Positions 14,578 to 64,000 of a stretch of 64,000 nt of DNA are shown here, piece by piece (position 1 is the stretch's first letter; each line of letters starts with the position of its first letter). A program made the translations under genes and the position numbers. The notes below the pieces were generated by a model. That model saw only the letters and a program-made list of their open reading frames with translations, was not told the DNA's origin and made no database searches. Source of the stretch: an uncultured Prevotellaceae bacterium (lineage in GTDB: Bacteria > Bacteroidota > Bacteroidia > Bacteroidales > Muribaculaceae). Where the stretch lies: the NCBI GenBank assembly GCA_900319525.1, contig ONOU01000021.1, positions 6,149-70,148 of the forward strand, in the 5' to 3' direction.

Positions 14578-15452
14578 TTCTTCATTTTGTAAGTTTCGTT
14601 CTTCAGGAATACGCCCAATTCCTCGGGCGTCTTGTACTTTGCGTACTGCTCGGGCATGATGGGATCATGCACGCTGACGCGGAAGTCGTAGCTCTTGCGG
14701 CGGAACATCTCGGAAGGCAGCCTCAATGTTCTCAATTTCCAGCTGATTGCGCCCAGTAGCAGGGAAATCCAGCTATTGTGGCCGTGGATGTAGATGGGAA
14801 TGACAGGCACCTTGAGCTTCATGATCAGGCGCATGATCACGGGCTGCCACTCGCGGTCCTCGACGCGCAGCTTCCACGTGAGCTTGCTCACGGCACCGGC
14901 AGGGAAGAATCCCATCGGGTGGCCGGCCTTGACGTGCTTGAGCGTGTCGCTGATGCCCTGCATCGACACGGCTTTCTTGGCGGGGTCGTCGCTGGCCAGG
15001 GCATCGACGGTGATGAAGTTGGGCATCATGCCGCCAATCTTGCTCAGTATCATGTTGACCATGAACTTGTAGTCAGGCCTGTGGGTGCCGATGATGTGAA
15101 TCATCATCACGCCATCAACGGCGCCAAAGGGGTGGTTTGTCACGGTAATGAATGCACCCTCGGGCAGGTTGTCGAGCACCTCGCCGTTGTCATAGGTGAT
15201 GGTGGCGTTCAGGTCCTTGAGTACACCAGTGCAGAAGGGGACGCCCGGCGTGTGGCAGTTGTGGCCGTGAATCCAGTTGGCGTCGTCCATGTCGAACAGG
15301 TGGAACAGCCACTTGACCAGTTTGGGTTTCCCGTCAAAGAAGGGCACCAGTTTCCTCACGTCGTCATAGTCCAGAATATCGGGCTTGATAGTGGGTTGCT
15401 GCTCTATGTTGGGTTGCTCTTGTAGGTTGTTTTGTATCTTGTTTTCTTCCAT
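14562..15452 (-). CDS. lysophospholipid/1-acylglycerol-3-phosphate acyltransferase family protein
   Basis: The HX4D acyltransferase motif is present in NHPFGAVDG. 296 aa. Confidence 0.6.
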   Translation of the reverse strand: MEENKIQNNLQEQPNIEQQPTIKPDILDYDDVRKLVPFFDGKPKLVKWLFHLFDMDDANWIHGHNCHTPGVPFCTGVLKDLNATITYDNGEVLDNLPEGAFITVTNHPFGAVDGVMMIHIIGTHRPDYKFMVNMILSKIGGMMPNFITVDALASDDPAKKAVSMQGISDTLKHVKAGHPMGFFPAGAVSKLTWKLRVEDREWQPVIMRLIMKLKVPVIPIYIHGHNSWISLLLGAISWKLRTLRLPSEMFRRKSYDFRVSVHDPIMPEQYAKYKTPEELGVFLKNETYKMKKWQQK

Positions 15453-15648: not shown

Positions 15649-16845
15649 TTACTTGTAGCGGTCGCTGATGTTGTAGATGGCCTTGTAGATGTCGCGGTCG
15701 ATGTCGGTGAGGGGGATGTTGCGGCGTTTCATCACGCGCTCGGCGATGGTGTAGAATGTCTCAAGGGGCACGTTCTTGAAGCCTGCGGCAGCGCTGCCTT
15801 CCTGGAAGGAGGCGACGAAGTTGCGGGGAAATCCCGCCCCATGGATGTTGACGCCAACGCCCAGCACAGTGGCTGTGTTGATCATGCCGTTGACGCCGAT
15901 CTTGCTGTGGTCGCCCATGAAGAGTCCGCAAAACTGCAGCCCTGTGCGCTCGAAGCGCTTGCTGGCGTAGTTCCACAGCTTGATTTCGCCATAGTCGTTC
16001 TTGAGGTTGCTGGCCGTGGTTCCGCCACCGATGTTGCACCACTCACCGATAACGGCATCACCCAGGAAGCCCTCATGGGCCTTGTTACTGTAGCCGATGA
16101 AGACGGTGTTCTCGACCTCGCCGCCGATTTTGCAGTGAGGTCCCAGCGTGGTCGCGCCATAGACCTTGGCGCCGATGCGCACCTTGGCATCATGGCATGC
16201 CGCAAAGCCTCCACGAATGCAGGCTCCCTCCATGACCTCGACGTTGGGGCCAATGTAGATGGGTCCCTCGTGGGTGTTGAGCATGGCGCCCTCGACATAG
16301 GCCCCTGGCTCGATGAAGATGCGTGAGGTGTCACCGATGACGGTGTTGGAGGCCGGTACGGGCTGTGACTGGCGCCCAGCCGTCAAGCGATTGAAGTCCT
16401 GTTCCAGGACCATACCATTAAACATGAAGATGTCATACAGGTGCTTGACGATGAGAGGAATTTCTTGGGGGAACTGCACGTTGGTATAGTGACGTGTGTC
16501 AAAGTCGTGGGCCGTTCCGTTGAAGGCGATGAGCTCCTCACCTACCATGAGGGCTTCGCCCAGCTGCAACGACAGCACCTGCTGGGCCAGCTCGGGCGTG
16601 GGTATAACGTGGCCAGCCACCATCAGATTGCTGCTGCGGCGCACGTGCAGCGGGAATTTCTTCTTGAGGTAGGGGACGGTGAGGTAGCTGTAATTGGCCT
16701 CGCCGAGCAAGTCTTGCCACTTCTCGCCGATGGTGGTGATGCCCACGCGCAGCATGGCCGTGGGGCGGGTGTAGGTGAACGGCATGAGTTGCCTGCGCAC
16801 CTCATTGTCGTCAAACAGGATGATGTTGCGTGCTGTCTTCTTCAT
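15649..16845 (-). CDS. GlmU-like sugar nucleotidyltransferase with left-handed beta-helix domain
   Basis: 398 aa. The C-terminal half carries hexapeptide repeats (IGPNVEVMEGACIRGG, IGAKVYGATTLGPHCKIGGEVEN). Divergent from rfbC. Confidence 0.6.
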   Translation of the reverse strand: MKKTARNIILFDDNEVRRQLMPFTYTRPTAMLRVGITTIGEKWQDLLGEANYSYLTVPYLKKKFPLHVRRSSNLMVAGHVIPTPELAQQVLSLQLGEALMVGEELIAFNGTAHDFDTRHYTNVQFPQEIPLIVKHLYDIFMFNGMVLEQDFNRLTAGRQSQPVPASNTVIGDTSRIFIEPGAYVEGAMLNTHEGPIYIGPNVEVMEGACIRGGFAACHDAKVRIGAKVYGATTLGPHCKIGGEVENTVFIGYSNKAHEGFLGDAVIGEWCNIGGGTTASNLKNDYGEIKLWNYASKRFERTGLQFCGLFMGDHSKIGVNGMINTATVLGVGVNIHGAGFPRNFVASFQEGSAAAGFKNVPLETFYTIAERVMKRRNIPLTDIDRDIYKAIYNISDRYK

Positions 16846-17626: not shown

Positions 17627-20215
<2,589 letters not shown>

Positions 20216-21317: not shown

Positions 21318-21896
21318 ATGAACACGTTACAACCCGCTATTGAACGTCATCCGTGGCAGCCCTTTGTCCCTAAGGATGCAAAATATCTTTTTCTGGGCAC
21401 ATTCCCGCCCCAGGAACACCGCTGGTCCATGGCCTTCTATTATCCTAATCGGACCAACGACTTCTGGCGCGTCATGGGTCTTATCTTTATGGATGACCGT
21501 GATGCCTTGTGGGACCGCGAGGCGGGGCGTTTTGACCTTGATGCCATCAAGGCCCTGCTCGGGAGAGAAAAAATCGCCCTGTGGGACACGGGCATGGCCG
21601 TGCGCCGCCTGAAAGGCAATGCCAGTGACAAGTTTCTTGAAATCGTGGAACCGATAGACCTTGCCGTGTTACTTGATGCGCACCCGACAATTACCCGGGT
21701 TGTCACTACCGGCGAGAAAGCTACCGGAGTGATTGCTGCTCAGGCAGGTGTGGAGCTGCCGGCGATAGGAATTCCCGTCGAATGTGAGGTTCGGGATCAT
21801 CACTTCACCTTGTGGCGTATGCCTTCAACTTCGCGGGCCTATCCACTGGCTCTGGAGAAGAAGGCCGAGGCATATCGGCGCATTTTTGACCGTTGA
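21318..21896 (+). CDS. uracil-DNA glycosylase superfamily protein
   Basis: ORF trimmed to MNTLQPAIERHPW. The motif LFLGTFPP...NDFWRVMG resembles the UDG/MUG-like superfamily. Confidence 0.55.
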   Translation: MNTLQPAIERHPWQPFVPKDAKYLFLGTFPPQEHRWSMAFYYPNRTNDFWRVMGLIFMDDRDALWDREAGRFDLDAIKALLGREKIALWDTGMAVRRLKGNASDKFLEIVEPIDLAVLLDAHPTITRVVTTGEKATGVIAAQAGVELPAIGIPVECEVRDHHFTLWRMPSTSRAYPLALEKKAEAYRRIFDR

Positions 21897-51641: not shown

Positions 51642-52196
51642 TTACAGGTGCTTAATCACGCGGCAAGGGTTACCCACGGCCACGCAGTTTGACGGAATGT
51701 CGCGCGTCACCACCGAGCCGGCGCCGATGGTCACATTATCGCCTATTGTCACTCCTGCCAGGATGGTTACTGAGCCCCCGATCCACACATTGTCGCCGAT
51801 GGTTACAGGAAGCGCCCACTCGCGGCGCGTGTTGCGCTCCACCGGATCGGTGCTGTGGCAGGCCGTGTAGATGCCCACGTTGGGACCGATAAAGCAGTCG
51901 TCGCCGATGGTCACACGCGCCTCGTCAAGCACCGTGAAGTTGAAGTTGGCAAAAAATCGTTTGCCCACGCTGATGTGTTTCCCATAGTCACAGTAGAACG
52001 GCTGGTTGATCAGCAGTTTCTCATCCCCCACATGTCCCAGCAGCTCCAAGAGCAACGCCGTGCGCTCAGCCATCATCGACGGCAGCAGCTCATTATAGCG
52101 GCGGATGACATCCTTACACGCATTCAACTCCCGCAACAGCTGCTCATCCACAGCAGAGTAGGGCAGTCCGGCCAACATTTTCTCTTTCTCGGTCAT
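51642..52196 (-). CDS. sugar O-acetyltransferase (maltose/galactoside acetyltransferase family, hexapeptide repeat)
   Basis: ORF trimmed to MTEKEKMLAGLPY. IGDDCFIGPNVGIYTACHS, VTIGDNVWIGGSVTILAGVTIGDNVTIGAGSVV. Confidence 0.8.
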   Translation of the reverse strand: MTEKEKMLAGLPYSAVDEQLLRELNACKDVIRRYNELLPSMMAERTALLLELLGHVGDEKLLINQPFYCDYGKHISVGKRFFANFNFTVLDEARVTIGDDCFIGPNVGIYTACHSTDPVERNTRREWALPVTIGDNVWIGGSVTILAGVTIGDNVTIGAGSVVTRDIPSNCVAVGNPCRVIKHL

Positions 52197-52222
52197 AGCA
52201 TCAATCATCGTGATAATTTCCG

Positions 52223-52230
52223 CAAAATTA
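52223..52230 (-). promoter_or_regulatory. -7 promoter box (TAATTTTG) for the acetyltransferase gene
   Basis: Matches TAnnTTTG on the minus strand, 27 nt upstream of the ATG at 52196. Confidence 0.4.
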
Positions 52231-52557
52231 CACAGAAAAACCAACTCCCGCAACCCACAACACCGCATAGCGGCAATACAAAAAAAATCAGCACGACTCT
52301 CCCGAGCGATGCTGACAATCATGTTTAACCCTAAAAAACCTCCAAAAATTATGAGTTCACATCTATATCTGCAATAACCGTGCCAACTTTTTGGTGTTAT
52401 AAATAACTGATATTTAGTGTGTTATTGTGGATGGTTTTCGAGCTTGCTTCCATGGATTTGCCATTAAAATGGCTCAAATGGGACAAAAATAGGGTACAAA
52501 AACGCCTCAAAAACTTACTATAAACAGTAGTGTGTCCCCTCTTTTTGTACCAAAATT

Positions 52558-55500
52558 ATGAGCAAAAAACGTCAAATATTCTATCGAGAGAGCACGTTGA
52601 GATTCCATTTACGTGCCCCAAAATCGTCCCGTCCCACCCTAATATTTCTTGCTACATGTATCGATGGGAAACGATATAAGATTAGTACCAAGGTAAGGGT
52701 TTATTCTAGCCAGTGGGATCAGGAGAGACAGCTTGCTGTGGTATCGAATGTCCAGAGTAAACAGGATAATCGCAACAACACAATTGCTAACAATCAATTA
52801 AACAAGTTGAGAGGCTATTTTTCTGAATTTATTGAGTATATTTGCAACAATAATGTCGATGACATAGCAGAAACACTTAAAAAATTCATCAATAGGGATA
52901 TGGCTAAAAAGAAAATCAACCTCGTTTATATTGCAGCTGATGCTCTGGAATATTACCATAGCTACGTTAAGCCATCTATCAAGGACAGCACAAAACGTCA
53001 AAGCGAATCGCTTCTGAGTGAGTTTGGCCGTTTTGTAGACACCTTGCGAGAGAAGGATAAAACCATGCAGATATTTAGCCAGAGAGGTTTAAATATGTAT
53101 AAGGAGTATCTCATAGACAAGATGAACAAGAGTAAATACGATGATAACATGAGAAACTTCGGAGTAGGTCAACTGAACCGTTGTGGTTCCATCATCGCCT
53201 TGCTGATCAATAAAGTGCTCGTCCCCCAAGAAAAAGCACCCAGCCCAGTCGTTTGGATTAAAGTTGATGATCCTCGTAGAGAAGACCAAATGGGGCATAT
53301 TCCTCTGCTAGATAATGAAGTTGCAGCAATAGAGAATTGTTCTGGTCTAACCCCAGTTGAAGAGGAGTACCGTGATGTATTCTTGCTTCATCTTGAGTGT
53401 GGTCAGCGTGTTTCAGACTTGGCCAAACTGCTCACCGGGAACTACAAGGTCAAGCAAGGAAAGAAATATAAGTATATCGTTGTTTCTACAACGAAGGAGA
53501 ACATCAATGCGATTATTCCCATAACTCCCAAGGTTACAATGTTGATGGACAAAATCAAGAACCATAAGCTTGTTGACCCGAAGGAGTTTGAAGAAAAGAC
53601 GAAAGGTAAAGGCAATAATACATATAATGAAGCAATTCGTCGGATAGCTAAGAAAGCTGGATTAGATAGAGAGATCGTCAAGATTGATTCCACTCAAAAA
53701 GAAGTAAGGAAACCGTTATATAAGACTTTATCCAGCCACGATGCTAGATGCACGTTTATAACTAACATGATCAGGAAGGGCGTTAGTCCAGAACGGTTGT
53801 GCAGGATGACAGGTCATGCCAACGATGAGATGATTAAACGAGTCTATGCTCAGCTCACTGTAGAAGATGAAATCAACCGAATCGAATCCGACCTGTATAG
53901 CGACGTCGACGACGACGATACTGCTGATCAACTTGTAAATTCATCGTCGAATAAACCAAACGAACTGACAACTGCCATTACAAATGAACGTCCGGTTGAG
54001 GAATTTGTGGCAACATCCTCAAAAGTCGTTGTTTCGGATTCAATACCCACACCGCATTTTGATAGAAATAGTTACATTAAAGGCCTTGAAGAAGCTGTAA
54101 ATACGTCTTTAGCACAAATCGAGACTTGGCATGATGAGATAAGTTTTGATGACTCGATGATAGAAGAGTTTAAATCGAAACTTGATAAGGCATATCTAGA
54201 TTATAAAGAACAAATAGAAGGCGAGACTCTCGATTCTGAAGACGATATTATCGAATGGTGGCATCAATATGAAGAGTATTTTGATGAGGAAGATAGCAAA
54301 CAACCGGAATCATGTCAAAGTTTCATGGACATATATAAAATTGCTTTTCTAAATGCCTTAACCGACTATTGTAAAGAAAAGCAATTGGGGAATCATGTGC
54401 TTAAAAAAATAGAGAGTTTTAAGAATGAGATATATGATGGGAATCCAATCCTTAATCTTATCAATATGGCACTATCTTCTATTAATATAATGATTCCATT
54501 TGTCTCAATTTCGTCTGTTTTAGCCACAGCTATTCAATACGCTGTTTACAACCGTCCTGTTATTGGACATATATTCAATGATGAGACCCTTGGCAAGTTA
54601 ATTCGTATTCCTAACTGGAATCTTGTGTATCAAGAATTGCATAAATTCCCAGCCTTGAGGTTGGAGGCGATGATACAGAAAACAGACTGCCCTAACGATA
54701 TTAAAATCACCCTGTATAAGTCAATAACTTCTGGTGATGTGACTTTATTTGCCAATACAATAAACTCATATTATAGAGAAACATCTGAATTGATTGAATT
54801 GGCATATGTAATGGATTTTATCAACAAGGCAATGGAGTTGGGCAACCAAAGGTTGAATCCTGATAGAGAATTATTTAGTCCGCTTGATGAAATTGCAGAT
54901 TTGCAAGATTTCTTTGCATCTCAGAACCCATTTGAGGAATTTGATTTTGGCATATTTACCTTGGAGGAATCTAATACGGAAGAGCAAGCCTTATTTGTAT
55001 TAGATCACTGGGTTGGAATGCTCGAGGAACTCAAAAGAATAGCCTATCCTAAAGAGCGGAAAATATATAATAAAATCTTAGGGCTTGTTAGCCAATATCC
55101 TGAACTGGAGAAGGCTTATGATAAGTATAAAACTATTCAAGACACCATATCTAACGATGAATCAAAAATTGATGACATCAAGAACATAATTACCAAGAAA
55201 AAGCCAAAAGTAGCTTTCGAGGATCTTGTGATTTTTATGTCAGAAATCGATTATGCCAATTATAAACCACACGAGTTGCTGCCTTCGTTAAATTCAGGTA
55301 TTACAAAACAAGGAGATAGTGTGTTTAAGGAGTTCATTCAATTTCTGGTCTTTTCGAGTTGCATAGATAATAATGATAATATTAAACAACTATTGACTTA
55401 CAGGCTTACAGGAGCATGTCGGCCGGAAGGCGACTTGGAAAAAATTCCATGGAATCCAGATAAGTTAAATGAACTAGCTTATGTTATTATGTATTCAACT

Positions 55501-55668
55501 GTAAGAGCTAAAGGCAAATATGAAAGAGTTCGTGAATTCTTTGAAGGCCCGAAGTTTCCTGATGATATATCAATGATTAGAACCTATGCAGACAGCGCAC
55601 CTCAAGATTTCAGGCTAGGGCTCAACAAACTTTATCCTGATGTTTTTACAATAAAAGGTGCTAGATAA
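52558..55668 (+). CDS. tyrosine site-specific integrase (res ~1-445) fused to a ~590-aa C-terminal region of unknown function
   Basis: A Bacteroidetes-type Arm-binding N-terminus is followed by the catalytic residues: R284 (ECGQRVSDL), H394-x-x-R397 (SSHDARCTF), H420 (MTGHAND) and Y430 (KRVYAQL). An acidic linker DVDDDDTAD follows, and the ORF stays uninterrupted to residue 1036. Confidence 0.8.
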   Translation: MSKKRQIFYRESTLRFHLRAPKSSRPTLIFLATCIDGKRYKISTKVRVYSSQWDQERQLAVVSNVQSKQDNRNNTIANNQLNKLRGYFSEFIEYICNNNVDDIAETLKKFINRDMAKKKINLVYIAADALEYYHSYVKPSIKDSTKRQSESLLSEFGRFVDTLREKDKTMQIFSQRGLNMYKEYLIDKMNKSKYDDNMRNFGVGQLNRCGSIIALLINKVLVPQEKAPSPVVWIKVDDPRREDQMGHIPLLDNEVAAIENCSGLTPVEEEYRDVFLLHLECGQRVSDLAKLLTGNYKVKQGKKYKYIVVSTTKENINAIIPITPKVTMLMDKIKNHKLVDPKEFEEKTKGKGNNTYNEAIRRIAKKAGLDREIVKIDSTQKEVRKPLYKTLSSHDARCTFITNMIRKGVSPERLCRMTGHANDEMIKRVYAQLTVEDEINRIESDLYSDVDDDDTADQLVNSSSNKPNELTTAITNERPVEEFVATSSKVVVSDSIPTPHFDRNSYIKGLEEAVNTSLAQIETWHDEISFDDSMIEEFKSKLDKAYLDYKEQIEGETLDSEDDIIEWWHQYEEYFDEEDSKQPESCQSFMDIYKIAFLNALTDYCKEKQLGNHVLKKIESFKNEIYDGNPILNLINMALSSINIMIPFVSISSVLATAIQYAVYNRPVIGHIFNDETLGKLIRIPNWNLVYQELHKFPALRLEAMIQKTDCPNDIKITLYKSITSGDVTLFANTINSYYRETSELIELAYVMDFINKAMELGNQRLNPDRELFSPLDEIADLQDFFASQNPFEEFDFGIFTLEESNTEEQALFVLDHWVGMLEELKRIAYPKERKIYNKILGLVSQYPELEKAYDKYKTIQDTISNDESKIDDIKNIITKKKPKVAFEDLVIFMSEIDYANYKPHELLPSLNSGITKQGDSVFKEFIQFLVFSSCIDNNDNIKQLLTYRLTGACRPEGDLEKIPWNPDKLNELAYVIMYSTVRAKGKYERVREFFEGPKFPDDISMIRTYADSAPQDFRLGLNKLYPDVFTIKGAR

Positions 55669-55717
55669 GATGATAACAACAATCCCCAGAAGCTTGATAT
55701 CGCTCCTGGAGATTTCG

Positions 55718-56326
55718 TTAGGCTCGTACAAATGTGACTCCGGACCTGCAAGTTCGGTTGAGTCTATAAGCCATAGAGACAGCTGATATGCTTAGATTAT
55801 TTGCACTCGCCGCAGCTCCTATCGAAGGGTATTCTTGTTCGGAACCATCACTCATGATAGCTCTGATCCTTTTTTTCTTGGCGTTACTCATCTTTTGTTT
55901 GGTTTCTTCTCCGCGTTTTATTCCAGTCATTGTTTGAGAAATCTTTTCTTTTACTTCGTTAGGCATGGCCATCCCAAGCCTACCGCCACCGCCATAATTG
56001 CTGTTCAACCCTTTTTCTACGCTGTCAGTTTTTAAAATCCAAAAGCCTTCACGTGCTTCTAGCCTTTTTATCATGTCTTTTTTAGTAATGTTGAACTCTG
56101 TTATTACCTCAACTAACTCAAACAAGAAACAACTAGATCCGTGTTTTTGCCTAAGCTCCTCAAATTTTGCACCACAATAAGGGTGCGTCATACAATTAAA
56201 TTTATTCTTTCTTTTACGTAAGTTAAGGGTACATCCATAGTAATACTCTCCATCATGTTTATCACCAGGGCAATTAAACTGAATTCTGTAAATATAACCT
56301 TCAAGGCTATCATAAATTTTTTCCAT
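55718..56326 (-). CDS. GIY-YIG nuclease with NUMOD-type DNA-binding motifs (free-standing homing-endonuclease-like)
   Basis: The N-terminus has GYIYRI...YYYG (GIY-YIG) and REGFWI. The C-terminus has EVKEKISQTMTGIKRGEETKQKMSNAKKK (NUMOD3-like) and YPSIGAAASANNLSISAVSMAYR (NUMOD1-like HTH). Confidence 0.7.
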   Translation of the reverse strand: MEKIYDSLEGYIYRIQFNCPGDKHDGEYYYGCTLNLRKRKNKFNCMTHPYCGAKFEELRQKHGSSCFLFELVEVITEFNITKKDMIKRLEAREGFWILKTDSVEKGLNSNYGGGGRLGMAMPNEVKEKISQTMTGIKRGEETKQKMSNAKKKRIRAIMSDGSEQEYPSIGAAASANNLSISAVSMAYRLNRTCRSGVTFVRA

Positions 56327-56421
56327 GTTATTATTGTTTATTACGTTTCATTACCTCGAAAATCGCTATTCGCGAGGTAAATGTTATAGGGATGATGTTG
56401 TGATTCATCATCCCCATGATC

Positions 56422-56706
56422 TCATTTGATTCTCTTTTTCCGGCTTGTGATTGTAAGCTCTATTCCTCTTGATTCTAGGAATTTAACAAATCTATTATAG
56501 GATTCTGTTTTGGGATACTTTCGAGGACAAAGCTCAAATAACTCAGGCAGTTTCATTGTGAGCTTACAGTAGCCATTATTATCCCATGCATACTTGAACT
56601 CTTCGCTCTCTTGCCTCAATGCATCAATGTCTAGGGCAAATAATCTCTCTTCGATATCTTGTTTATGAGAATAATTCCGTTTTAAGCCGCCAGTAGTATT
56701 GTTCAT
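56422..56706 (-). CDS. small basic protein, paralogue B (shared CPR...SRK C-terminal domain)
   Basis: 94 aa. The C-terminus LTMKLPELFELCPRKYPKTESYNRFVKFLESRGIELTITSRKKRIK aligns with the upstream neighbour. Confidence 0.5.
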   Translation of the reverse strand: MNNTTGGLKRNYSHKQDIEERLFALDIDALRQESEEFKYAWDNNGYCKLTMKLPELFELCPRKYPKTESYNRFVKFLESRGIELTITSRKKRIK

Positions 56707-57026
56707 TTTTTCCTTCCTTTCCTGCTTGAAATTATTAGCCTTGTACCGAATCTTTTATCTAGTTCCGATATCAGTTTTCTATAAGCATCTGTCCTTTTTC
56801 GAGTCCTTGGACAGATAATTAAAATCTCCTGCAAAGTCAAATTGATTTCACGTCCACGTTCTAGTGGTCCGTATTTTTCTTCAAGACTTCTAATGTCATC
56901 TTCAAATGAACCTGTTTGAGAGGGTAAGGCAGATATCTCCTTCCTTGAGTTTTTAGGTTCTAATGTCTCCGCATTTTCCGAATCAACGCTGAATAAGGGT
57001 AAAAGCAATTCATAAAACATAATCAA
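56703..57026 (-). CDS. small basic protein, paralogue A (shared CPR...SRK C-terminal domain)
   Basis: 107 aa. The C-terminus LTLQEILIICPRTRKRTDAYRKLISELDKRFGTRLIISSRKGRKK. It overlaps the downstream paralogue by 4 nt. Confidence 0.5.
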   Translation of the reverse strand: MIMFYELLLPLFSVDSENAETLEPKNSRKEISALPSQTGSFEDDIRSLEEKYGPLERGREINLTLQEILIICPRTRKRTDAYRKLISELDKRFGTRLIISSRKGRKK

Positions 57027-57273
57027 TTTCGTTTTTCGATTTTTTCTGATTTAAGAAAAAAGGTCAAATAGTGACCGATTATTCTTTACTCTACACTTAT
57101 AAGATTTGAGCAGGCTATAAAGCGCAAAAATCCTATTTCAAGAATAAGGCAGGAAAGGGATTCTAAGTGCAAAATTTTGTTCTGGAAATATTAAGGCCGA
57201 TGACCCTAAAGATCCCACCGGCCCTATGAGTTGTATGTTTTTTAATAATAGCTAGGTTACTTATAGCTAATGC

Positions 57274-58182
57274 TTAACCTTGCTCTGCTAAATTCCTTGT
57301 GTTGTATGCTGATTGTACTGTTCTTTTTATCTCTTCTGCGGTAAATCCATTAGCTCTGTCTTGATAGTATATTACCAGATAATCTTCAGCAAATTGTTCA
57401 GGAATGCCGCTATCCTTGAAGAACGAGGCCAAGATGAAAAGGTTGCAGTTCCGGTTCCCTTTCTGCATTGAATAATACTTTTCAAACAATTCATGTTCTT
57501 CAAGAATCCGTTTCCGAATCTCTGCGCTATCGGTAAGCACTGTGGCGCATCCCGAATAGTCCTTTTTATTGCCCTGTTTCGCTACAGGCTTACTTATTGA
57601 TTGTGGAAGTGCATCTATGTCCACATGATAAGCGATAGCGCTATCATTGATATAAATATCCTTGTCCACGCTCATGAAACATGCTCTGGATACATGTCCG
57701 CAACTGGTATCAAAAATCAGATCCGTCCGTCTTGTGAGACCCAATCGCTCACCCAGATAGGAGTACATATCATGGAATCGCATAGGGTCGATGAGGTCAT
57801 GAAGCACTAATACCTTTAGTCCATTTTGAGATGGTGATCTGAAGATGGACAACACACAAGGAAATGCTTTTAGTCTGTTTTTCTCACCTTGTAGATCCTT
57901 CACATCATCAAGATCGAAACAAACGACCCCGGACATGTCGATTAAAGCTTGATCCTCTCTCTTTTGAAAAGTTCCATTCGGGCAGAACACCGGTAAGAGT
58001 TTTTCTTTCAATTTGTTCCGTGTGGACTTGTCTTGTTCTTTAGCAATAACATCAACTATTCTTTTAATTGATTTATCACATCCCCCGATTTTTCTCAAGA
58101 GCTCCATCAACGGCACATGATTTGGGTACTTCACTGCTTTAATGTTAGAAAAAAAGCTAACTACTATATTGTTCTTAACCAT
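57274..58182 (-). CDS. BT4734/VirE N-terminal-domain primase-like protein (with PriCT-like C-terminus)
   Basis: The pattern KLKEKLLPVFCPNGTFQKREDQALIDMSGVVCFDLDDV matches the BT4734-like/VirE_N family seen in Bacteroidetes element primases. The C-terminal NRNCNLFILASFF...GFTAEEIKRTVQSAY is PriCT-like. Confidence 0.55.
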   Translation of the reverse strand: MVKNNIVVSFFSNIKAVKYPNHVPLMELLRKIGGCDKSIKRIVDVIAKEQDKSTRNKLKEKLLPVFCPNGTFQKREDQALIDMSGVVCFDLDDVKDLQGEKNRLKAFPCVLSIFRSPSQNGLKVLVLHDLIDPMRFHDMYSYLGERLGLTRRTDLIFDTSCGHVSRACFMSVDKDIYINDSAIAYHVDIDALPQSISKPVAKQGNKKDYSGCATVLTDSAEIRKRILEEHELFEKYYSMQKGNRNCNLFILASFFKDSGIPEQFAEDYLVIYYQDRANGFTAEEIKRTVQSAYNTRNLAEQG

Positions 58183-58307
58183 AATTTATTGAATATTTAA
58201 AGTACAACTAATGACCATATTTTTTTACTTTTTTATATCCCTATATAGATAGGTAAATATTTTTGGTTCAGTTAGTTAACTATCAAAATAACTAAAAATC
58301 AAATAAT

Positions 58308-59951
58308 CTATGAGATAGTTAAACTTATTTGATAAAGAGAAAGAAATCTTATCAAGTTATCGTAGCGCGATTTTGCTTTTCTGTCCCTTGGTATGATATT
58401 ATATAATTCATCAAGCGAGATAGTGATGTTATAGGGTAAGTTACTTTCTATAGCATCTCTAATCTTGCTGTCGTATGAATAAAGAGCGACCAAATCCATG
58501 ATGTATTTCTTTTCTGGCTTTTTCTTAGCGACGATTGGTTTCGGCACTCCACTGATAGTACATGTTGACAGTGAGTTTGATCTGAAATATTCTTGAACTT
58601 TATAAATTCTGTCCTTTCTCAAATCATCAGTATAGTACACTCTGATAGGTAATCCTTTGTGCTGCCTGATCCTTAACCGGCATATAGTCTGAATAAGCAG
58701 TGATTCCATATACTGCTCATAGTCGCAATTGAGCCCGAACATGTGATTGATGTCATTGACAATATTCTCAGGGATATTCCATTCCCCGAAAAAAATGACC
58801 GTAGAATAATCTCTGAATTCATTTGATCCCCTGTCATGGCCACTCCCACGATAGATAACGCTGAATTTATCTTGATTTATTCCAGCATCAGAAGCAAGAT
58901 AATCGCTCAACAACTTACAAAAATCGCTTTCCGGCTTCTTGTCTGCTTCCAGTTCATCAATGCTTGTCCGCTGGAGATACAAGCTCATCCAGGTAATAAT
59001 GAGAACGCGACCTTGTTCAGATTCTTTTTTTACTATTTCCACCAGGCCATTGAGATACTTAGATACCTCGTTTTTGTTCCATCCTGTTAGGCTCTTTCTA
59101 GTGAATGGAAGCGGAAATTCAGTGAAGGTGATATCACTACTGTATTTTGAACCAGTAACAGGAAGAATTCTTGAATCGGTGCTACTGGCCAAACAATCGA
59201 TTGTTCCGTCAAAAAGAACAACACGCGAATCGTCCTTGAGTGAATCCAAGTTTACTTTAGCCCATTTAAAGCTGTTGTTCTGTCGAATTTGAGAAAACAG
59301 ATAATTCAGCTTGTATTTCTCAAGTTTATTACCCAGTTTCATCAGATTCAACCCACTACATTTGTAAGCTGCTTCCATCAAGACCATATCCTGATAAATG
59401 TGTTGGTATAACTTGTTGTCTGGATCGATTAGTTTCCCATTTATCCCAGGCTGCTCATCAATGTAGGTTAATACGTTCTTCAGCTCTATCGGGTCCACAG
59501 GCTGTTCTGGATAGAAATTTATCAATTCATCCACGAGTATCAATCCTCTACAACCGTTACGGTAAGCGGTAAATAAAGGTATAGGATCTAACTGAAACCG
59601 TGCTGATGTGATAACCAAGACTTCAAAATTACGTAATGATTCTGGGTCGTTACGGTAGTTGAGAAGTCTGTCACTAGATAACTCGCCGCTATGAAGAATA
59701 TAGGTGCCTATCGGTTGGAGTTGGGACCTCAAGTCTTCAGCCGCATCTATAGTGGGGACAACAATCAGAACACCGTCACTTCTATATCTCTGGGCGATTT
59801 CTGCTATGATTGTCGTTTTGCCTGACCCACAACCTGAAGAGACAAAATATAGCCCATTGCTCTGGGGAAAGTCAATGCTGCAATTAAGAAAATGCATCAT
59901 CGGTTTTCCTCCGGTTTCGATAAGCTTTATCGGTTGTTGATGAGAATGCAT
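58308..59951 (-). CDS. P-loop NTPase, putative helicase/translocase of the island
   Basis: Walker A SSGCGSGKTT, Walker B LILVDELINF and a late TICRLRIRQ (Arg-finger/motif VI-like) are present. The motif order is not a clean SF2 match, so the family is unresolved. Confidence 0.45.
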   Translation of the reverse strand: MHSHQQPIKLIETGGKPMMHFLNCSIDFPQSNGLYFVSSGCGSGKTTIIAEIAQRYRSDGVLIVVPTIDAAEDLRSQLQPIGTYILHSGELSSDRLLNYRNDPESLRNFEVLVITSARFQLDPIPLFTAYRNGCRGLILVDELINFYPEQPVDPIELKNVLTYIDEQPGINGKLIDPDNKLYQHIYQDMVLMEAAYKCSGLNLMKLGNKLEKYKLNYLFSQIRQNNSFKWAKVNLDSLKDDSRVVLFDGTIDCLASSTDSRILPVTGSKYSSDITFTEFPLPFTRKSLTGWNKNEVSKYLNGLVEIVKKESEQGRVLIITWMSLYLQRTSIDELEADKKPESDFCKLLSDYLASDAGINQDKFSVIYRGSGHDRGSNEFRDYSTVIFFGEWNIPENIVNDINHMFGLNCDYEQYMESLLIQTICRLRIRQHKGLPIRVYYTDDLRKDRIYKVQEYFRSNSLSTCTISGVPKPIVAKKKPEKKYIMDLVALYSYDSKIRDAIESNLPYNITISLDELYNIIPRDRKAKSRYDNLIRFLSLYQISLTIS

Positions 59952-60001
59952 TGTGAAATAATATGTTTAAATTAACGATATAACACAAGATTGAGCAGAA
60001 G

Positions 60002-60037
60002 AAAAATCCCGCTCCGCAGATACGCCGCAGAGCGGGA
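60002..60037 (-). terminator. rho-independent terminator of the ParB-like gene
   Basis: The stem TCCCGCTC/GAGCGGGA (60007-60014 / 60030-60037) is followed on the minus strand by T5 (plus-strand A-run 60002-60006). Confidence 0.6.
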
Positions 60038-60047
60038 TAATTAGAGA

Positions 60048-61292
60048 TTACTCTTTGCTTTGGTATTCCTCAAAGAGTTGGTGGATTTTTGAACGAGCCA
60101 CGTCATAGCGAGAGAACTTATGAGGAACGCCGTCCACATCCTCAGTCTTACCAGCTGACTGATTAATAGCTGTAACCTCGCCTTGTGTGAGGGAGCCGAT
60201 AAACTTTGTGATGACATTAGCGGCATCCTCCAAGGTCGTTGTACCATCAGCTAAAAGGCTATGCATCTTTTCAATAAGATACTTAGATACCTCCTTTGAG
60301 CCGATCATCCTGGAATCGACTCCTGCAGTCTTGAGTGTCTCGTAGATTTCGCGACCATACTTGTTGCTTCCCTCGGTGAGTCTATTTCTAGTCTCAACAT
60401 CACTCTGTGCCTTATAGAGGCGGTTAGCCGTGGGTTGACGTTTGTATGTTCCGGTGGCATAGCCCCAAGCTGCGATTTCAGAGCAACCCTCTGTGGTGTA
60501 TTTTTTTACGAGCTCAAGAGTCTCGGTTACTTCCTTGTTGACCCCAGGAAGGTTGCTGCTATTCAGGAGGGATACCAGGTAATCAGTACCCTTCCAAGGG
60601 CGAGTCGAGATGTTGGACTCCCCTAACATGGTGAGGACTTTGGGGCGCTCGATCTGAGGAAAGATAACAGGAAGGTCGTAAGGACGCTCATCGGGCTTGC
60701 GTTCCAGATTGAGGCGCGTAACTGCGTCATCTCGGTGTTGACCATCGATGATGACGAGATAACTGTCTATATCGGGATCGTCGAGTGAAAGTTGATTGCC
60801 GTTCTCGTCCACGACCTCAAGACCTTGCTCTAAACAGGCTCTTGCGGATACGACCAAGATCGGACTAATGATACCATTGCTACGCTTGATGGACATCATT
60901 TTTTTCTTAACAACCTTGTCGTTGACTTCGCGGTTATTTCTCAGGCCGGCTTTCTTGAATCCATGAGAAGAGAGCTCGTCCCATGTGTAGATTCTGCGTG
61001 GGTCAAGACCGATGGGAATAACACTGGCCTGGTTAGCGATTTTATCCACAGGACTGCCCGCTGTGGTGGCCTGCTCATTTGCATCCAGAGCAGTAGGGAT
61101 GTCATTCGGAGTCGATACCTGTACAGCATTCTTCTCTTTCATAACTTCGTTGTTTGAGTTTGTTGTTTCCTGAGCGTTAATGTTCTGCTCAGTCTCGTTT
61201 ACACTGTGGCTCTCAGGAGCCGGATAAATAGAATTCTTCATTTCTTCAATTTTTTGTTGTTGATTAATAATGTATATTGTGAAATGCTTCAA
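60048..61292 (-). CDS. ParB/Srx-fold (DGQHR-motif) protein with disordered N-terminal region
   Basis: ISPILVV...YLVIIDGQHRDDAV is the ParB N-terminal/DGQHR nuclease-like core. An alternative start MKNSIYP lies at 61241. Confidence 0.6.
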   Translation of the reverse strand: MKHFTIYIINQQQKIEEMKNSIYPAPESHSVNETEQNINAQETTNSNNEVMKEKNAVQVSTPNDIPTALDANEQATTAGSPVDKIANQASVIPIGLDPRRIYTWDELSSHGFKKAGLRNNREVNDKVVKKKMMSIKRSNGIISPILVVSARACLEQGLEVVDENGNQLSLDDPDIDSYLVIIDGQHRDDAVTRLNLERKPDERPYDLPVIFPQIERPKVLTMLGESNISTRPWKGTDYLVSLLNSSNLPGVNKEVTETLELVKKYTTEGCSEIAAWGYATGTYKRQPTANRLYKAQSDVETRNRLTEGSNKYGREIYETLKTAGVDSRMIGSKEVSKYLIEKMHSLLADGTTTLEDAANVITKFIGSLTQGEVTAINQSAGKTEDVDGVPHKFSRYDVARSKIHQLFEEYQSKE

Positions 61293-61361
61293 CTCGGCTG
61301 TAACACTTCTGCTATGGTTTCACGTGCATTGTTTAAGATGCTCGTTCGCCCTTAGCACTGG

Positions 61362-61369
61362 CAAAATTA
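61362..61369 (-). promoter_or_regulatory. -7 promoter box (TAATTTTG) for the ParB-like gene
   Basis: Matches TAnnTTTG on the minus strand, 70 nt upstream of 61292. Confidence 0.35.
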
Positions 61370-61396
61370 CAGCCGCAAATTCGGGTGACCATAGCT

Positions 61397-61436
61397 TGTA
61401 GTGAACTGTAGTGAACTGTAGTGGATTGTAGTACAG
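61397..61436. repeat. four tandem 10-bp iterons (TGTAGTGAAC x2, TGTAGTGGAT, TGTAGTACAG)
   Basis: Head-to-tail copies with helical-turn periodicity, just upstream of the ParB-like promoter box. Confidence 0.7.
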
Positions 61437-61768
61437 TGCATTGATTTATAGACACTTGTACGATGTCCATTTCAGTGATTTTTGGGGAAGATGTTATTTG
61501 ACTTAAAGGGTACTAAAAGATGCCGTCCAAGAGTGGCATAAATCCCTTATATACAAGAATATAAAAAATGGCCCATTCATGGACCGCCCATATTACATAA
61601 AAGGAGGCGGCTTTATTTGGGCCATGACTATATATCATACCGTGATCATAGCCCTCAGCGAAGAGTTGATGCGCTTTTGATCACATCTTGACGTTAGAAT
61701 CTAGCAGTTTTCAAATTGCCACTCGTGCGACCTGATTTCTGTATAGAGAGTCAAGGAGGATTACAGGT

Positions 61769-61812
61769 TATATACCCACCGAAGAGGTGGATATAAGCCT
61801 GTTTTCTTTTTC
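61769..61812 (+). terminator. plus-strand intrinsic terminator with no annotated upstream plus-strand gene
   Basis: Stem TATATACCCACC/GGTGGATATAAG (10 pairs, one internal mismatch) with loop GAAGA, followed by CCTGTTTTCTTTTTCCC. The minus-strand reading has no T-run. Confidence 0.45.
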
Positions 61813-62070
61813 CCTCTTTAATACCTGATATGATGATTATATGCTAGGAATTCAAGCCAAAACACCGTCGAGATTCATAAGCAAAATATCTTTTATTTTT
61901 CTGGAACAACCTAATTTACCACGTTCTCAGAAAAATAAAAGCGCATTTTTTGATTTGAAAACTCAGCGAAATTCAATAAAAAAGCTCTGTTTTCGCTGAT
62001 TTTTAAAGAGGTTTTTGGGCCGAATTTCAGTTTCATTTTTGAAATTGTCATTCGGGTGAATAAAGGGTAA

Positions 62071-62104
62071 ATAAAAAATAAGCACGTTGAAACATGCTTA
62101 TTTT
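62071..62104 (-). terminator. rho-independent terminator of the ATPase/TOPRIM-like operon
   Basis: A 10-bp stem AAAATAAGCA/TGCTTATTTT with a 10-nt loop, followed by a T-rich tail on the minus strand, 24 nt after the stop at 62128. Confidence 0.6.
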
Positions 62105-62127
62105 ACTAGTAGAAAACGCTATATGTA

Positions 62128-62670
62128 TCACTTGTTTTCAAATATCTTTTGTAGTTCCGCTGTATCAGATCTATATTGATTCTCGTTCAGATAATTTAAT
62201 GCGGAGTAAAGCTTATTCATCTCTTCCGCTTTGATCAATGCTCCAAAAAGGGATTTAAAACGAGGATCTTTCTTGGCTTTGACATCTTTTGTGACTTTTA
62301 TAAACTCTTCCAATCTAGTAGGAAGACCATACTCTTCAAGATGAACGCCTAATTCAGCTGAGCAATCCAATATGAAACGGTCCATAGCTGGGCTTACCAT
62401 GACCAAGTAGTGAGGACGATCCCTGTGTTTAAGTAGTGAGATATGCTTTGTATTAGCAATTTCTATAAACTCATTCACATACGAGGGCTTGCGCTTGTCG
62501 TTATCAATGATGCCGATAGAGAACTGATCCTTTAGATTTGTCTCCTTCATGCTTCTAGCTACTTCATTACAGCCTTTTTTATGGTTTACACCAGATGAAT
62601 TTAGCAGAAATTCAGTAAGGCTTGTGTCAATGTAGCATTCTGGGACTACATGCCAGTCTTTCATTTTCAT
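62128..62670 (-). CDS. 180-aa TOPRIM-like protein (DUF4435/RloB/DUF4276-class candidate effector)
   Basis: The N-terminus has WHVVPECYIDTSL (Glu11), followed by SIGIIDNDKRK (Asp56-x-Asp58), the E...DxD TOPRIM spacing. Its start codon lies 1 nt after the ATPase stop. Confidence 0.5.
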   Translation of the reverse strand: MKMKDWHVVPECYIDTSLTEFLLNSSGVNHKKGCNEVARSMKETNLKDQFSIGIIDNDKRKPSYVNEFIEIANTKHISLLKHRDRPHYLVMVSPAMDRFILDCSAELGVHLEEYGLPTRLEEFIKVTKDVKAKKDPRFKSLFGALIKAEEMNKLYSALNYLNENQYRSDTAELQKIFENK

Positions 62671-62671
62671 A

Positions 62672-63730
62672 TCAGCCTAAGGTCTCTATGTTAAAGAATG
62701 CATCTACACCAAAGTCATATATAGCCTGAATATCTTCTTCTATGGCGCTCTTTACTGTCATAAAACCATCATCAGTAGTTTTGGTGTACAACAGAGTCAT
62801 ATCAATCTCTTGCTTCTCAATAAAGGCATTTAAAATATATGGACTATGAGTAGCAATAAAAAGACTATTGGGATGTTTGCCCTCAGTCTTAGTCAACAGC
62901 CATTCCACAAGGTTTGCCTGGGTCGGAGGAAAAAGATTAGCTTCAGGCTCTTCCAAAAAGATATCACAATGATGAGTATGGACATAGTTCGTAAAGACAT
63001 CTTTCTTATCCTCCTCATCCAATTTCGCTAACAAAACTCCTTGTTCTTGTAAATTTGCAAAACTCTCTATCCTTGAGTGCCTAATGTTAGTGATATGACT
63101 AAGGTGTATAAACAACGGAATGACTGACTGTAAACCACTTGATGTATTGGTAAAGTCAAGTGTAACGCCTTCGGATACCTGAACTTTATCAGACTTTGTA
63201 GCAGCATCATATCTGTATGACACTCCAAGATTTAAAACCTCTAAATCTTCTTTCGTCGCTTGACGGGCAGATTCCCAATCTGCCATAAAGTCACGAATAT
63301 TGTCATCAGCAAATTTGACTTGGAACCAGTTTGGAATAGCTGCAACAAGATTGCGCTCGGCGGGGATATATGTCACTTTGGAGCGATGGTAGTCCCATCT
63401 GCCTTCTTTCCACTTAAAATTGAATTTGTTTAAAGCATTATCAAATGAAAAAGACATGAATTCAGACTCATAGCTGATAAAGGTATCAGGTTTGATATAT
63501 CCTTTCAACTTGTGAAAACGCTCAAATTCCTTTGTGAAGTTACCGTCTTTCGCAAAGAAATCTGCTGACTGAGTCAGTTCAATACGCTTCTCTACCCAGG
63601 TACAATAACAAGCGGTTTTCAGGACACAACTTTTACCTGAACTCTGCGGACCAATGATTACATTGATTCGCTTCAATTCAATATCAGCCTCTTTGATTGG
63701 GCCCAAATTTCGTATCTTGATATGTTTCAT
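62672..63730 (-). CDS. ABC/SMC-type ATPase (AAA_15/AAA_21-like) partner of the TOPRIM-like protein
   Basis: From MKHIKIRNLGPIK: Walker A GPQSSGKS (K33), Q-loop YIPAERN, signature SSGLQS, Walker B/D-loop IFLEEPEANLFP and H-loop ATHSPYILN. Start supported by a -7 box 5 nt upstream. Confidence 0.75.
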   Translation of the reverse strand: MKHIKIRNLGPIKEADIELKRINVIIGPQSSGKSCVLKTACYCTWVEKRIELTQSADFFAKDGNFTKEFERFHKLKGYIKPDTFISYESEFMSFSFDNALNKFNFKWKEGRWDYHRSKVTYIPAERNLVAAIPNWFQVKFADDNIRDFMADWESARQATKEDLEVLNLGVSYRYDAATKSDKVQVSEGVTLDFTNTSSGLQSVIPLFIHLSHITNIRHSRIESFANLQEQGVLLAKLDEEDKKDVFTNYVHTHHCDIFLEEPEANLFPPTQANLVEWLLTKTEGKHPNSLFIATHSPYILNAFIEKQEIDMTLLYTKTTDDGFMTVKSAIEEDIQAIYDFGVDAFFNIETLG

Positions 63731-63735
63731 AATTG

Positions 63736-63743
63736 CAAAGTTA
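63736..63743 (-). promoter_or_regulatory. -7 promoter box (TAACTTTG), 5 nt upstream of the ATPase ATG
   Basis: Matches TAnnTTTG on the minus strand. The geometry matches that at 4345 and 41958. Confidence 0.4.
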
Positions 63744-64000
63744 ATGCATTTCTTTGATATAGTGAGCAAAATCATAAAAAGAAATCTGACTCGGTTTTCT
63801 TCTTTCCATATTCCCGGCTCTGGTTTTTATAAATGTGTCTTGAATACAGATATTGAAGCAGCCACAAACCGTCTCGAGTCAGGTTTACTTCCAACGGGAT
63901 ATGATGGGAAAATTAATCAGATTATTAACCTAAGATCATCTGATAAAAACGAATGAAAACAGTCCAACGAATACAAAAATACGTGCAGGTTGGACATATT

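Follow-up and report, generated by a model that had tools for sequence, protein, structure and literature searches.

A tyrosine integrase at the border of a Muribaculaceae genomic island joined in frame to a full-length member of an unannotated protein family

The DNA analyzed here is a stretch of 64,000 nucleotides (the window) from contig ONOU01000021.1 of an uncultured Prevotellaceae bacterium placed in the Muribaculaceae. It contains an open reading frame (ORF) of 1036 codons that encodes a tyrosine integrase and then runs on, with no stop codon, through an extension of about 590 amino acids (aa). The gene is called Int-X and the extension after the integrase half is called X (Table 1). 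Two autonomous units are truly fused in frame in Int-X, and the fusion is old, conserved and under purifying selection, as seen from about 30 fused proteins that extend down to approximately 40% identity, from substitution rates and from independent assemblies. Residues 1-448 form a complete heterobivalent tyrosine integrase, for which recombination activity is predicted. Residues ~500-1036 are a full-length member of an unannotated family that combines a fast-diverging acidic helical domain with a conserved 130-aa C-terminal module. X lies on the inner side of a foreign-DNA border in every context and is linked to two unrelated integrase classes, tyrosine and serine, and a conserved repeat promoter is specific to X-bearing loci.

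An earlier note, made from the letters of the window, had placed the ORF at 52558-55668 on the plus strand. This was exact, including the ATG start, and all features that the note had picked out along the protein were located, namely the linker at residues 449-457 (DVDDDDTAD), the stretch EEYFDEEDSKQPE and the segment beginning IPWNPDKLNELAYVI. The note had left open a domain fusion, a recent loss of a stop codon, or an assembly error or frameshift near the linker. We compared contigs from independent public sequencing runs, which carry the run labels X1, X2, X3, X7 and X25-X27, over positions 52400-55800. A 15.7-kb contig of run X1, at a depth of 116, showed 0 differences to the window frame, and the contigs of run X2 were identical to the window. 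The 11.8-kb contig of run X7 carried 86 substitutions and 0 gaps, and run X3 differed by a single in-frame 3-nucleotide (nt) deletion at position 53908. Contigs from RNA-labelled libraries, in which DNA carry-over is possible, also crossed the junction (X25, 53788-53969; X26, 53874-54369; X27, 53886-54087). With the frame reproduced in independent assemblies without frame-breaking changes, the assembly-error or frameshift explanation was rejected. The public gene call for the locus (P0001) is shorter, 839 aa with a start at M198. However, residues 1-197 are 98% conserved, with a ratio of nonsynonymous to synonymous substitution rates (dN/dS) of 0.16 relative to the element copy in locus L002, which supports the 1036-aa reading over the 839-aa call.

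A search with the extension alone returned 32 proteins, 39-97% identical, nearly all of them 900-1035 aa long with a PF00589 domain; one is named as a Muribaculaceae integrase. Genome matches were Muribaculaceae metagenome-assembled genomes from goat and cattle, including Sodaliphilus sp. Of the two origins that the note had offered for the long frame, domain fusion is therefore retained, and a recent stop loss is rejected on the conserved homologues, the selection and the assemblies. The note had also reasoned that a stop at the linker in homologues would mean two genes merged in error. Normal-length integrases and stand-alone X genes do exist, but intact fusions coexist with them, a pattern that points to the joining of two autonomous modules and not to a spurious fusion.

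The integrase half itself is ordinary. Arm-DNA-bind_5 (PF17293) matched residues 28-99 (E=8.2e-6, 26.7 bits versus a curated cut-off of 22.6) and Phage_integrase (PF00589) matched residues 260-434 (E=4.5e-15). Residues R284, H394, R397, H420 and Y430, which had been named before as part of a complete Bacteroidetes-type integrase in the N-terminal part, are present together with K313 and are invariant in 17 homologues, so that the catalytic R-K-H-R-H/W-Y set of tyrosine recombinases is complete in the window protein. Locus L005 (8477-9853) encodes an integrase of normal length, 458 aa, that shares 78% identity with residues 4-454 of Int-X and terminates at the window’s linker (...DVEDDE and stop; ...ESDLYSDVEDDE-stop). 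The 458-aa integrase is also found in L006, L007 and L011. Because the L005 enzyme ends at the linker, the integrase half of Int-X corresponds to a whole integrase. In the same four loci, the 458-aa integrase stands in tandem with an arm-less 912-aa integrase-X fusion that begins 148 nt after it (L005, 8477-12739) and that retains the catalytic residues and the extension. Traces of arm-domain coding seem to persist 5' of the start of the 912-aa copy in L005 (tblastn, from query residue 73).

Int-X resembles the Bacteroidetes heterobivalent tyrosine integrases (Arm-DNA-bind_5 plus PF00589, the IntDOT/IntN1-like class) in its full architecture, its catalytic residues and its place as an island-border gene, and differs from them by the ~590 additional in-frame residues. 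The ICEclc IntB13-type integrases are likewise long tyrosine integrases with a C-terminal addition of unassigned role, which differ from Int-X in length and host phylum.

The earlier note had recognized no motif in the extension, and in agreement with this residues 446-1036 gave 0 matches in Pfam, NCBIfam, PHROGs and PADLOC. No known anti-phage defence profile of PADLOC-DB matched, with 0 families for the whole protein and 0 for the extension, and a sequence profile search of the PDB returned nothing below E=0.3. Relatives of X were absent from annotated phages and plasmids (tblastn) and from IMG/VR (pattern scans), and the X family is thus not a recognised phage or plasmid protein. By an exhaustive profile search the family holds 135 cluster representatives at E<1e-3, or more than 130 clusters at 50% identity. 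Among 90 scanned relatives, 82 carried no Pfam domain, and NCBIfam or PHROG assignments were limited to integrase parts. In a word-indexed protein collection the tail profile retrieved 18 proteins and the stand-alone-X profile 13, none of which is named by its source.

Most X relatives, more than 100 proteins, are stand-alone and 400-600 aa long, and they have the last ~130 residues in common. Several of them also match the middle domain of the window protein, which corresponds to their N-terminal part. P0010 (575 aa, L001) is a stand-alone X gene with its own AT-rich upstream region and a start just ahead of the conserved HFDRNSYIKGL helix. Since P0010 begins before the first helix, and since stand-alone members match both the middle domain and the tail, the extension corresponds to a whole protein. 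The window protein carries the signature of the family, an N-terminal helical domain that opens with a Y-x-x-G/E-L helix, and its tail motif, F..LINYLA..GYI.N....K.LL.YRLTGR.RP...L..I.W....EL.Y.I....KY.KM..FF.GP. Two tail types were distinguished that can be aligned only around a W-N motif, type 1 in the window protein and the large stand-alone family and type 2 in P0004, P0010 and P0033-44. One integrase core is paired with both types (window versus L010).

An AlphaFold2 (AF2) model of residues 450-1036 comprises a disordered stretch in the first 50 residues, a helical domain, a low-complexity stretch and a tail that was modelled poorly from a shallow alignment. The linker (residues 449-500) has a predicted local distance difference test score (pLDDT) below 35 and an isoelectric point (pI) of 4.05, and the middle domain (~500-865) consists entirely of helices, with a pLDDT of ~80-89. 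When the type 1 tail was remodelled from a 21-sequence alignment, it gave a small, mainly helical fold with a pLDDT of 92.5 and a predicted template modelling score (pTM) of 0.87. Foldseek found no match to the 587-aa model in the PDB or BFVD (best E 0.24 and 0.08), and none to the high-confidence tail model in the PDB (best E=3.8). In 13 contigs of one element type (L013-L015, 136-1635), which end in this region, X is called as pieces of 325 aa and 89 aa separated by 250 nt, and such copies may be decayed.

The substitution pattern shows that the Int-X gene is a recombinational mosaic under purifying selection. Among homologues of 1018-1036 aa the integrase core is 94-99% identical and the X part 22-50%, with residues 506-660 at 22-38%; cores and extensions do not co-diverge. 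The synonymous divergence (dS) is 0.05-0.23 in the integrase part and saturated in the extension, with a jump from 0.13-0.23 to saturation across the linker. Rapid evolution or positive selection as the cause of the divergent extension was rejected because dS is saturated as well, and the contrast between the two parts rather reflects exchange between old alleles. Where it was measurable, dN/dS in the extension was 0.22 for the middle domain (versus L010) and 0.09-0.19 for the tail. Relative to L010, the identity of the window protein is 79% in the arm (dS 0.94), 98% in the core, 98% in the linker, 85% in the middle domain and 33% in the tail, which indicates at least four modules with separate histories. 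Variant contigs from the same metagenomes split off at 53915; a different allele of the extension follows in some of them, and minor contigs read DEE-stop.

The G+C content (GC) falls from ~55% to ~40% at ~52.3 kb, and Int-X is thus the first gene, at the left end, of a foreign low-GC island in a rumen Muribaculaceae genome. Contigs of four runs track the host flank to 52390-52396 and then pass into unrelated sequence as loose ends. Upstream of the island lie efp and a maltose-acetyltransferase-like gene (51642-52322), and the same insertion site is used in L002-L007 and L012. The right end of the island is outside the window, and no direct repeats of attachment (att) sites were found within the window or L005. 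The window contains no tRNA genes, and the island part scanned for Rfam families (52000-64000) gave none.

X genes were found in several genomic contexts. In addition to the fusions with the tyrosine integrase family of the window, which include the distant branch P0073, X starts 2-5 nt after the stop codon of a 576-578-aa large serine recombinase (Resolvase plus Recombinase) in L018/19, L022/23, L024/25 and L026. Each pair lies at the edge of its element, which is inserted into a Mg-chelatase/comM-like gene, and the serine recombinases are mutually 78-84% identical, their X partners 34-41%. X further occurs in primase or DUF3987 elements (L016, L020). The largest stand-alone subfamily comprises 79 metagenome loci. 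The upstream neighbours of stand-alone X are housekeeping genes (M49 peptidase, IMPDH, uridine kinase, SecA, TRCF); the downstream neighbours are variable and resemble defence islands (AAA_14/DUF4143, ATPase_2, dynamin-like GTPases, radical SAM, nuclease, SNF2, Schlafen, WYL). The GC of stand-alone X is host-like and drops directly after the gene. Two generalizations were rejected on these loci, that X always stands beside a recombinase, since the largest stand-alone subfamily is almost without one within 10 kb, and that stand-alone X loci are primase-bearing elements, since primases are almost absent. In 38 stand-alone-X loci whose downstream sequence covers at least 4 kb, a search within 8 kb turned up neither a primase nor a helicase homologue.

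The promoter at X-bearing loci contains 2-5 direct repeats of a 7-bp unit, YACTAYA, usually two copies one helical turn apart and ~40-60 nt ahead of start codons. In the window, the array heads an operon of ParB-like, helicase-like and primase genes and is followed by a box of the Bacteroidetes -7 consensus, TANNTTTGY (PMC12632263); the same array is present in L002, L005 and L012. We searched the pattern YACTAYA-N3/4-YACTAYA in 1.25 Mb, consisting of the window and the fetched loci, and obtained 110 matches versus ~0.3 expected from the information content of the pattern. The window itself holds three overlapping matches versus 0.09 expected from shuffles. All 110 matches are oriented with the operon that they precede. 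On the strand of X, downstream of the X start, lie 81 of them, with the first match less than 400 nt from the X stop in 22 loci. The other 29 are on the opposite strand, all in Int-X elements and at a fixed site, the head of the convergent replication operon. None of the 110 falls in the upstream host DNA of X loci. A -7-like box is located 26-28 nt downstream in 68 of 76 distinct arrays and follows the strict consensus in 37 of the 76, compared with a background of 3.4%, the rate at which a strict TAnnTTTG box occurs somewhere in the wider interval of 10-60 nt after a random position. In the serine-recombinase loci L022 and L023 X is likewise followed by the array, and in some loci the array precedes X itself. 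Three loci with type 2 tails are without YACTAYA arrays.

Further repeats were noted around X genes. In place of the YACTAYA arrays, the three type 2 loci have three copies of about GTGAACGGGNATGCTCCG directly behind the X stop, ~50 nt apart in L008 (3080-3215) and L010 (11850-11975). The Int-X promoter region (52515-52534) contains TACTATA and then an inverted CAGTAGTG, ~25-45 nt before the ATG; this could indicate autoregulation of Int-X, with a single heptamer being statistically not meaningful. In eight loci (L059, L060, L061, L063, L067, L079, L084, L085) a minus-strand AAA_14/DUF4143 or ATPase_2 gene of 476-482 aa is placed between the X stop and the YACTAYA promoter, and this gap looks like an insertion hotspot. 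A stand-alone-X island in L073 (17169-17509) contains long arrays of 7-nt units, AAAGACG-like and then CCCCAGT-like.

We tentatively favour, with somewhat less than even confidence, a reading in which the partner that the integrase carries would be an island regulator of the Cox/Apl kind or an accessory of recombination. The C-terminal module of X would bind the phased YACTAYA repeats, which would abut the -33 element, and X at the repeats would govern how the neighbouring cargo or replication operon is transcribed, with the variable helical domain supplying oligomerization or signal sensing. Where X is made in one chain with the integrase, or is translationally coupled to a serine integrase, the synthesis of the integrase would be linked to operon switching. 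The direction of recombination might be linked in as well, so that the excised element replicates. Counted in favour of this proposal are the conservation of the fusion under purifying selection, the match of each half to a whole protein, the link of X to two unrelated recombinase classes, the border position, the repeat promoter and the type 2 loci with a different repeat. The functional guesses of the earlier note, a directionality, targeting or sensor module, are compatible with the findings.

Cox/Apl-type recombination directionality factors (RDFs) double as promoter regulators and bind direct repeats one helical turn apart; P2 Cox, 186 Apl and the winged helix-turn-helix (wHTH) RDFs resemble X in their integrase linkage and in an association with repeats of this spacing at a promoter (PMC7498355, PMC3936717). 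The hallmark of the Xis/Cox/Apl proteins is a small (~70-90 aa), basic protein with a helix-turn-helix (HTH) or wHTH, whereas X is acidic, 540-590 aa long and without an HTH, its C-terminal fold has no PDB match and its DNA binding is predicted. Phased direct repeats at X loci are seen at promoters only. BrxR/CapW-type regulators share with X, judged from gene position, a conserved gene that heads variable defence-like sets and a conserved operator at the cargo promoter; X has neither the wHTH-WYL architecture nor a sequence or fold relationship to them.

Several points weigh against X as a regulator that acts at the repeats. Neither a DNA-binding motif nor a known fold was detected in X with Pfam, NCBIfam, PHROGs, the PDB profile search or Foldseek, and X is acidic overall, with a pI of 4.5 for the middle domain and 5.9 for the tail. 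The link between X and the repeats is one of co-occurrence, for which block inheritance could account, and a host factor or a different cargo protein could be what binds the repeats. In window-type elements the repeats are 5.7 kb from X and on the other strand, and an exact array match is missing from about one third of the loci that reach at least 400 nt downstream. Tail type and cargo type are physically linked, so the correlation with repeat type does not isolate the tail. Some elements (L013-15) have X in pieces. Finally, the largest stand-alone subfamily almost never has a recombinase less than 10 kb away, and recombination is therefore not the general function of X.

A bolder form of this proposal, which we regard as possible but rather doubtful, would make X a new and widespread class of Bacteroidales island-boundary factors. 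X would then be a transcription factor with an unseen DNA-binding fold that reads phased YACTAYA repeats and switches cargo or replication operons, and that also sets the direction or timing of recombination when built into a tyrosine integrase or translationally coupled to a serine integrase. If this were true, Int-X would be the first natural integrase-regulator/RDF fusion, and mobile islands of the rumen and gut would have in the repeat promoter a control element that is portable.

It is unlikely that X is purely a modulator of recombination directionality or activity, which would act through protein-protein contact with the recombinase, have no DNA-binding or promoter role and make Int-X the natural counterpart of engineered integrase-RDF fusions. 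The in-frame fusion to tyrosine integrases and the translational coupling to large serine recombinases in at least four diverged elements would both fit such a partner. Serine-integrase RDFs are structurally diverse and hard to recognise (PMC12286644), and engineered serine integrase-RDF fusions (Olorunniji et al. 2017, PMC5737554) function as single proteins in which, similar to Int-X, integrase and accessory share one polypeptide with a flexible linker. Contrary to those synthetic serine enzymes with a proven RDF, Int-X is natural, its recombinase is of the tyrosine class and the function of its partner is inferred. A dedicated modulator is also difficult to reconcile with the absence of co-divergence, which is evident both in the tyrosine enzymes (integrase core 94-99%, X 22-50%) and in the serine recombinases (78-84%, with X at 34-41%), and with the use of both tail types by one integrase core in the window and L010. 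Moreover, most stand-alone X genes are without a recombinase within 10 kb, and with an RDF permanently attached to it, the enzyme would be biased away from integration.

Less probable still is that X is a cargo gene of its own, for instance for defence, exclusion or anti-defence, with a variable sensor and a conserved effector, that lies in an integrase-proximal hotspot and became fused incidentally. Its ancient, highly diverged alleles are shuffled by recombination, it adjoins integrases, and it sits in defence-island-like neighbourhoods (AAA_14/DUF4143, ATPase_2, dynamin-like GTPases, nuclease, Schlafen, WYL); antiviral hotspots near integrases are known in P2/P4-type elements (PMC9122126). 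However, PADLOC gave no match, X keeps a fixed, inward-oriented position at the island border across many host contexts, and the GC of stand-alone X is host-like, unlike cargo. An incidental neighbour would also not be expected to stay fused in frame across 40% divergence, or to be found repeatedly 2-5 nt behind serine recombinases.

We consider it very improbable that X is a replication initiator that loads helicase and primase, with the repeats as origin iterons beside an 830-bp non-coding region. The RDF Bxb1 gp47 is also required for phage DNA replication, the window repeats flank a long non-coding stretch, and primase or helicase modules accompany X in the window, L016 (DUF3987), L018/22/26 (AAA_25) and L020 and L024 (BT4734-like primase). 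Iteron initiators, however, constantly come with an origin and replication genes, their iterons lying near an AT-rich region, and the 38 stand-alone-X loci with at least 4 kb downstream show no primase or helicase homologue. The fixed 27 nt to the -7 box and the ~40-60 nt to start codons are the geometry of a promoter and not of an origin, and the units are just 7 bp, mostly in two copies. An artefactual or decaying long ORF, through two merged genes or a recent stop loss with a non-functional extension, may be dismissed, for although normal-length relatives stop at the linker, stand-alone X exists, X is fragmented in some elements and the public gene call is shorter at 839 aa, the frame is identical or differs by substitutions only in independent assemblies, RNA-labelled contigs span the junction (X25, X26, X27), and ~30 fused homologues reach down to 40% identity with an extension dN/dS of 0.09-0.23.

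Small accessory proteins that act in trans are the normal regulators of integrases. The in-frame partner, with its family, its fold and its promoter, is absent from the libraries and literature searched; the literature searches returned no account of the X family, the fusion or the repeat promoter. A natural enzyme with its partner in the same chain would offer a direct handle on how Bacteroidales islands of the gut and rumen link integration or excision with replication and with the expression of cargo, the more so as this partner is coupled to an unrelated integrase class as well. Single-chain integrase-accessory proteins are also of practical interest for genome engineering. The X family is large and unannotated, has a confidently modelled end domain without a structural relative, and marks the border between host and defence-like cargo. 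Together with the repeat promoter, X is a possible marker for such islands and a candidate regulatory part for Bacteroidales engineering.

Table 1. Position of Int-X, its predicted domains and associated island features in the window
Feature	Position	Strand	Basis or remark
Left island border (attL region)	52390..52396		GC fall, contig divergence
Int-X gene	52558..55668	+	1036 codons plus stop, ATG start; 118-kDa chain
Arm-type DNA-binding domain, residues 1-114	52558..52899	+	PF17293, pI 9.95
Core-binding and catalytic tyrosine recombinase domains, residues 115-448	52900..53901	+	PF00589, invariant catalytic residues
Acidic disordered linker and recombination breakpoint, residues 449-500	53902..54057	+	pLDDT, pI, dS jump
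Variable acidic all-helical domain of X, residues 501-865	54058..55152	+	AF2, stand-alone homology
Conserved C-terminal module of X (tail type 1), residues 895-1036	55240..55665	+	AF2, homologues
Repeat-promoter operon	57274..61292	-	ParB-like, helicase-like, primase
Primase, 302 aa	57274..58182	-	BT4734-like_N plus PriCT_1
Helicase-like, 547 aa	58308..59951	-	ResIII
ParB-like, 414 aa, first operon gene	60048..61292	-	DGQHR motif; ParB/DndB-like by eye; Pfam none
Bacteroidetes -7 box TAATTTTG, 27 nt after array	61362..61369	-	Consensus TANNTTTGY
Four tandem YACTAYA repeats, 10-bp period (TACTACAATC CACTACAGTT CACTACAGTT CACTACA)	61397..61433	-	Pattern search

The operon behind the repeat promoter gave VirE/PrimPol matches in PADLOC. 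Upstream of it are terminator-like hairpins at 62104-62075 and 61585-61570, which suggests that these genes form an isolated transcription unit. A 17-26-nt repeat, AGATACTTAGATACCTC, occurs inside the helicase and ParB-like coding regions (59048-59073 and 60272-60297), and in L005 it is found at 15030-15046 and 16254-16270, with the spacing of 1224 nt kept.

Between Int-X and two small ORFs lies a minus-strand gene (55718-56326) for a 202-aa GIY-YIG/homing-endonuclease-like protein (GIY-YIG E=6e-4; PADLOC HEase E=1.6e-5); the copies of the element in L002 and L005 do not have this gene at the corresponding position. The small ORFs, also on the minus strand, overlap (56422-56706 and 56703-57026) and encode products of 94 and 107 aa with similar basic C-termini (ITSRKKRIK and IISSRKGRKK) and no Pfam match; these could be small DNA-binding or excisionase-like proteins. 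At 62128-63775 (-), an AAA_15/AAA_21 ATPase of 367 aa and a 180-aa partner correspond to the PADLOC candidate PDC-M29A (E=3.7e-57), and this pair is likely anti-phage cargo of the island. In L005, 48-nt direct repeats (20007-20054 and 21589-21636) surround an ATPase_2 gene, which suggests a cassette-like unit.

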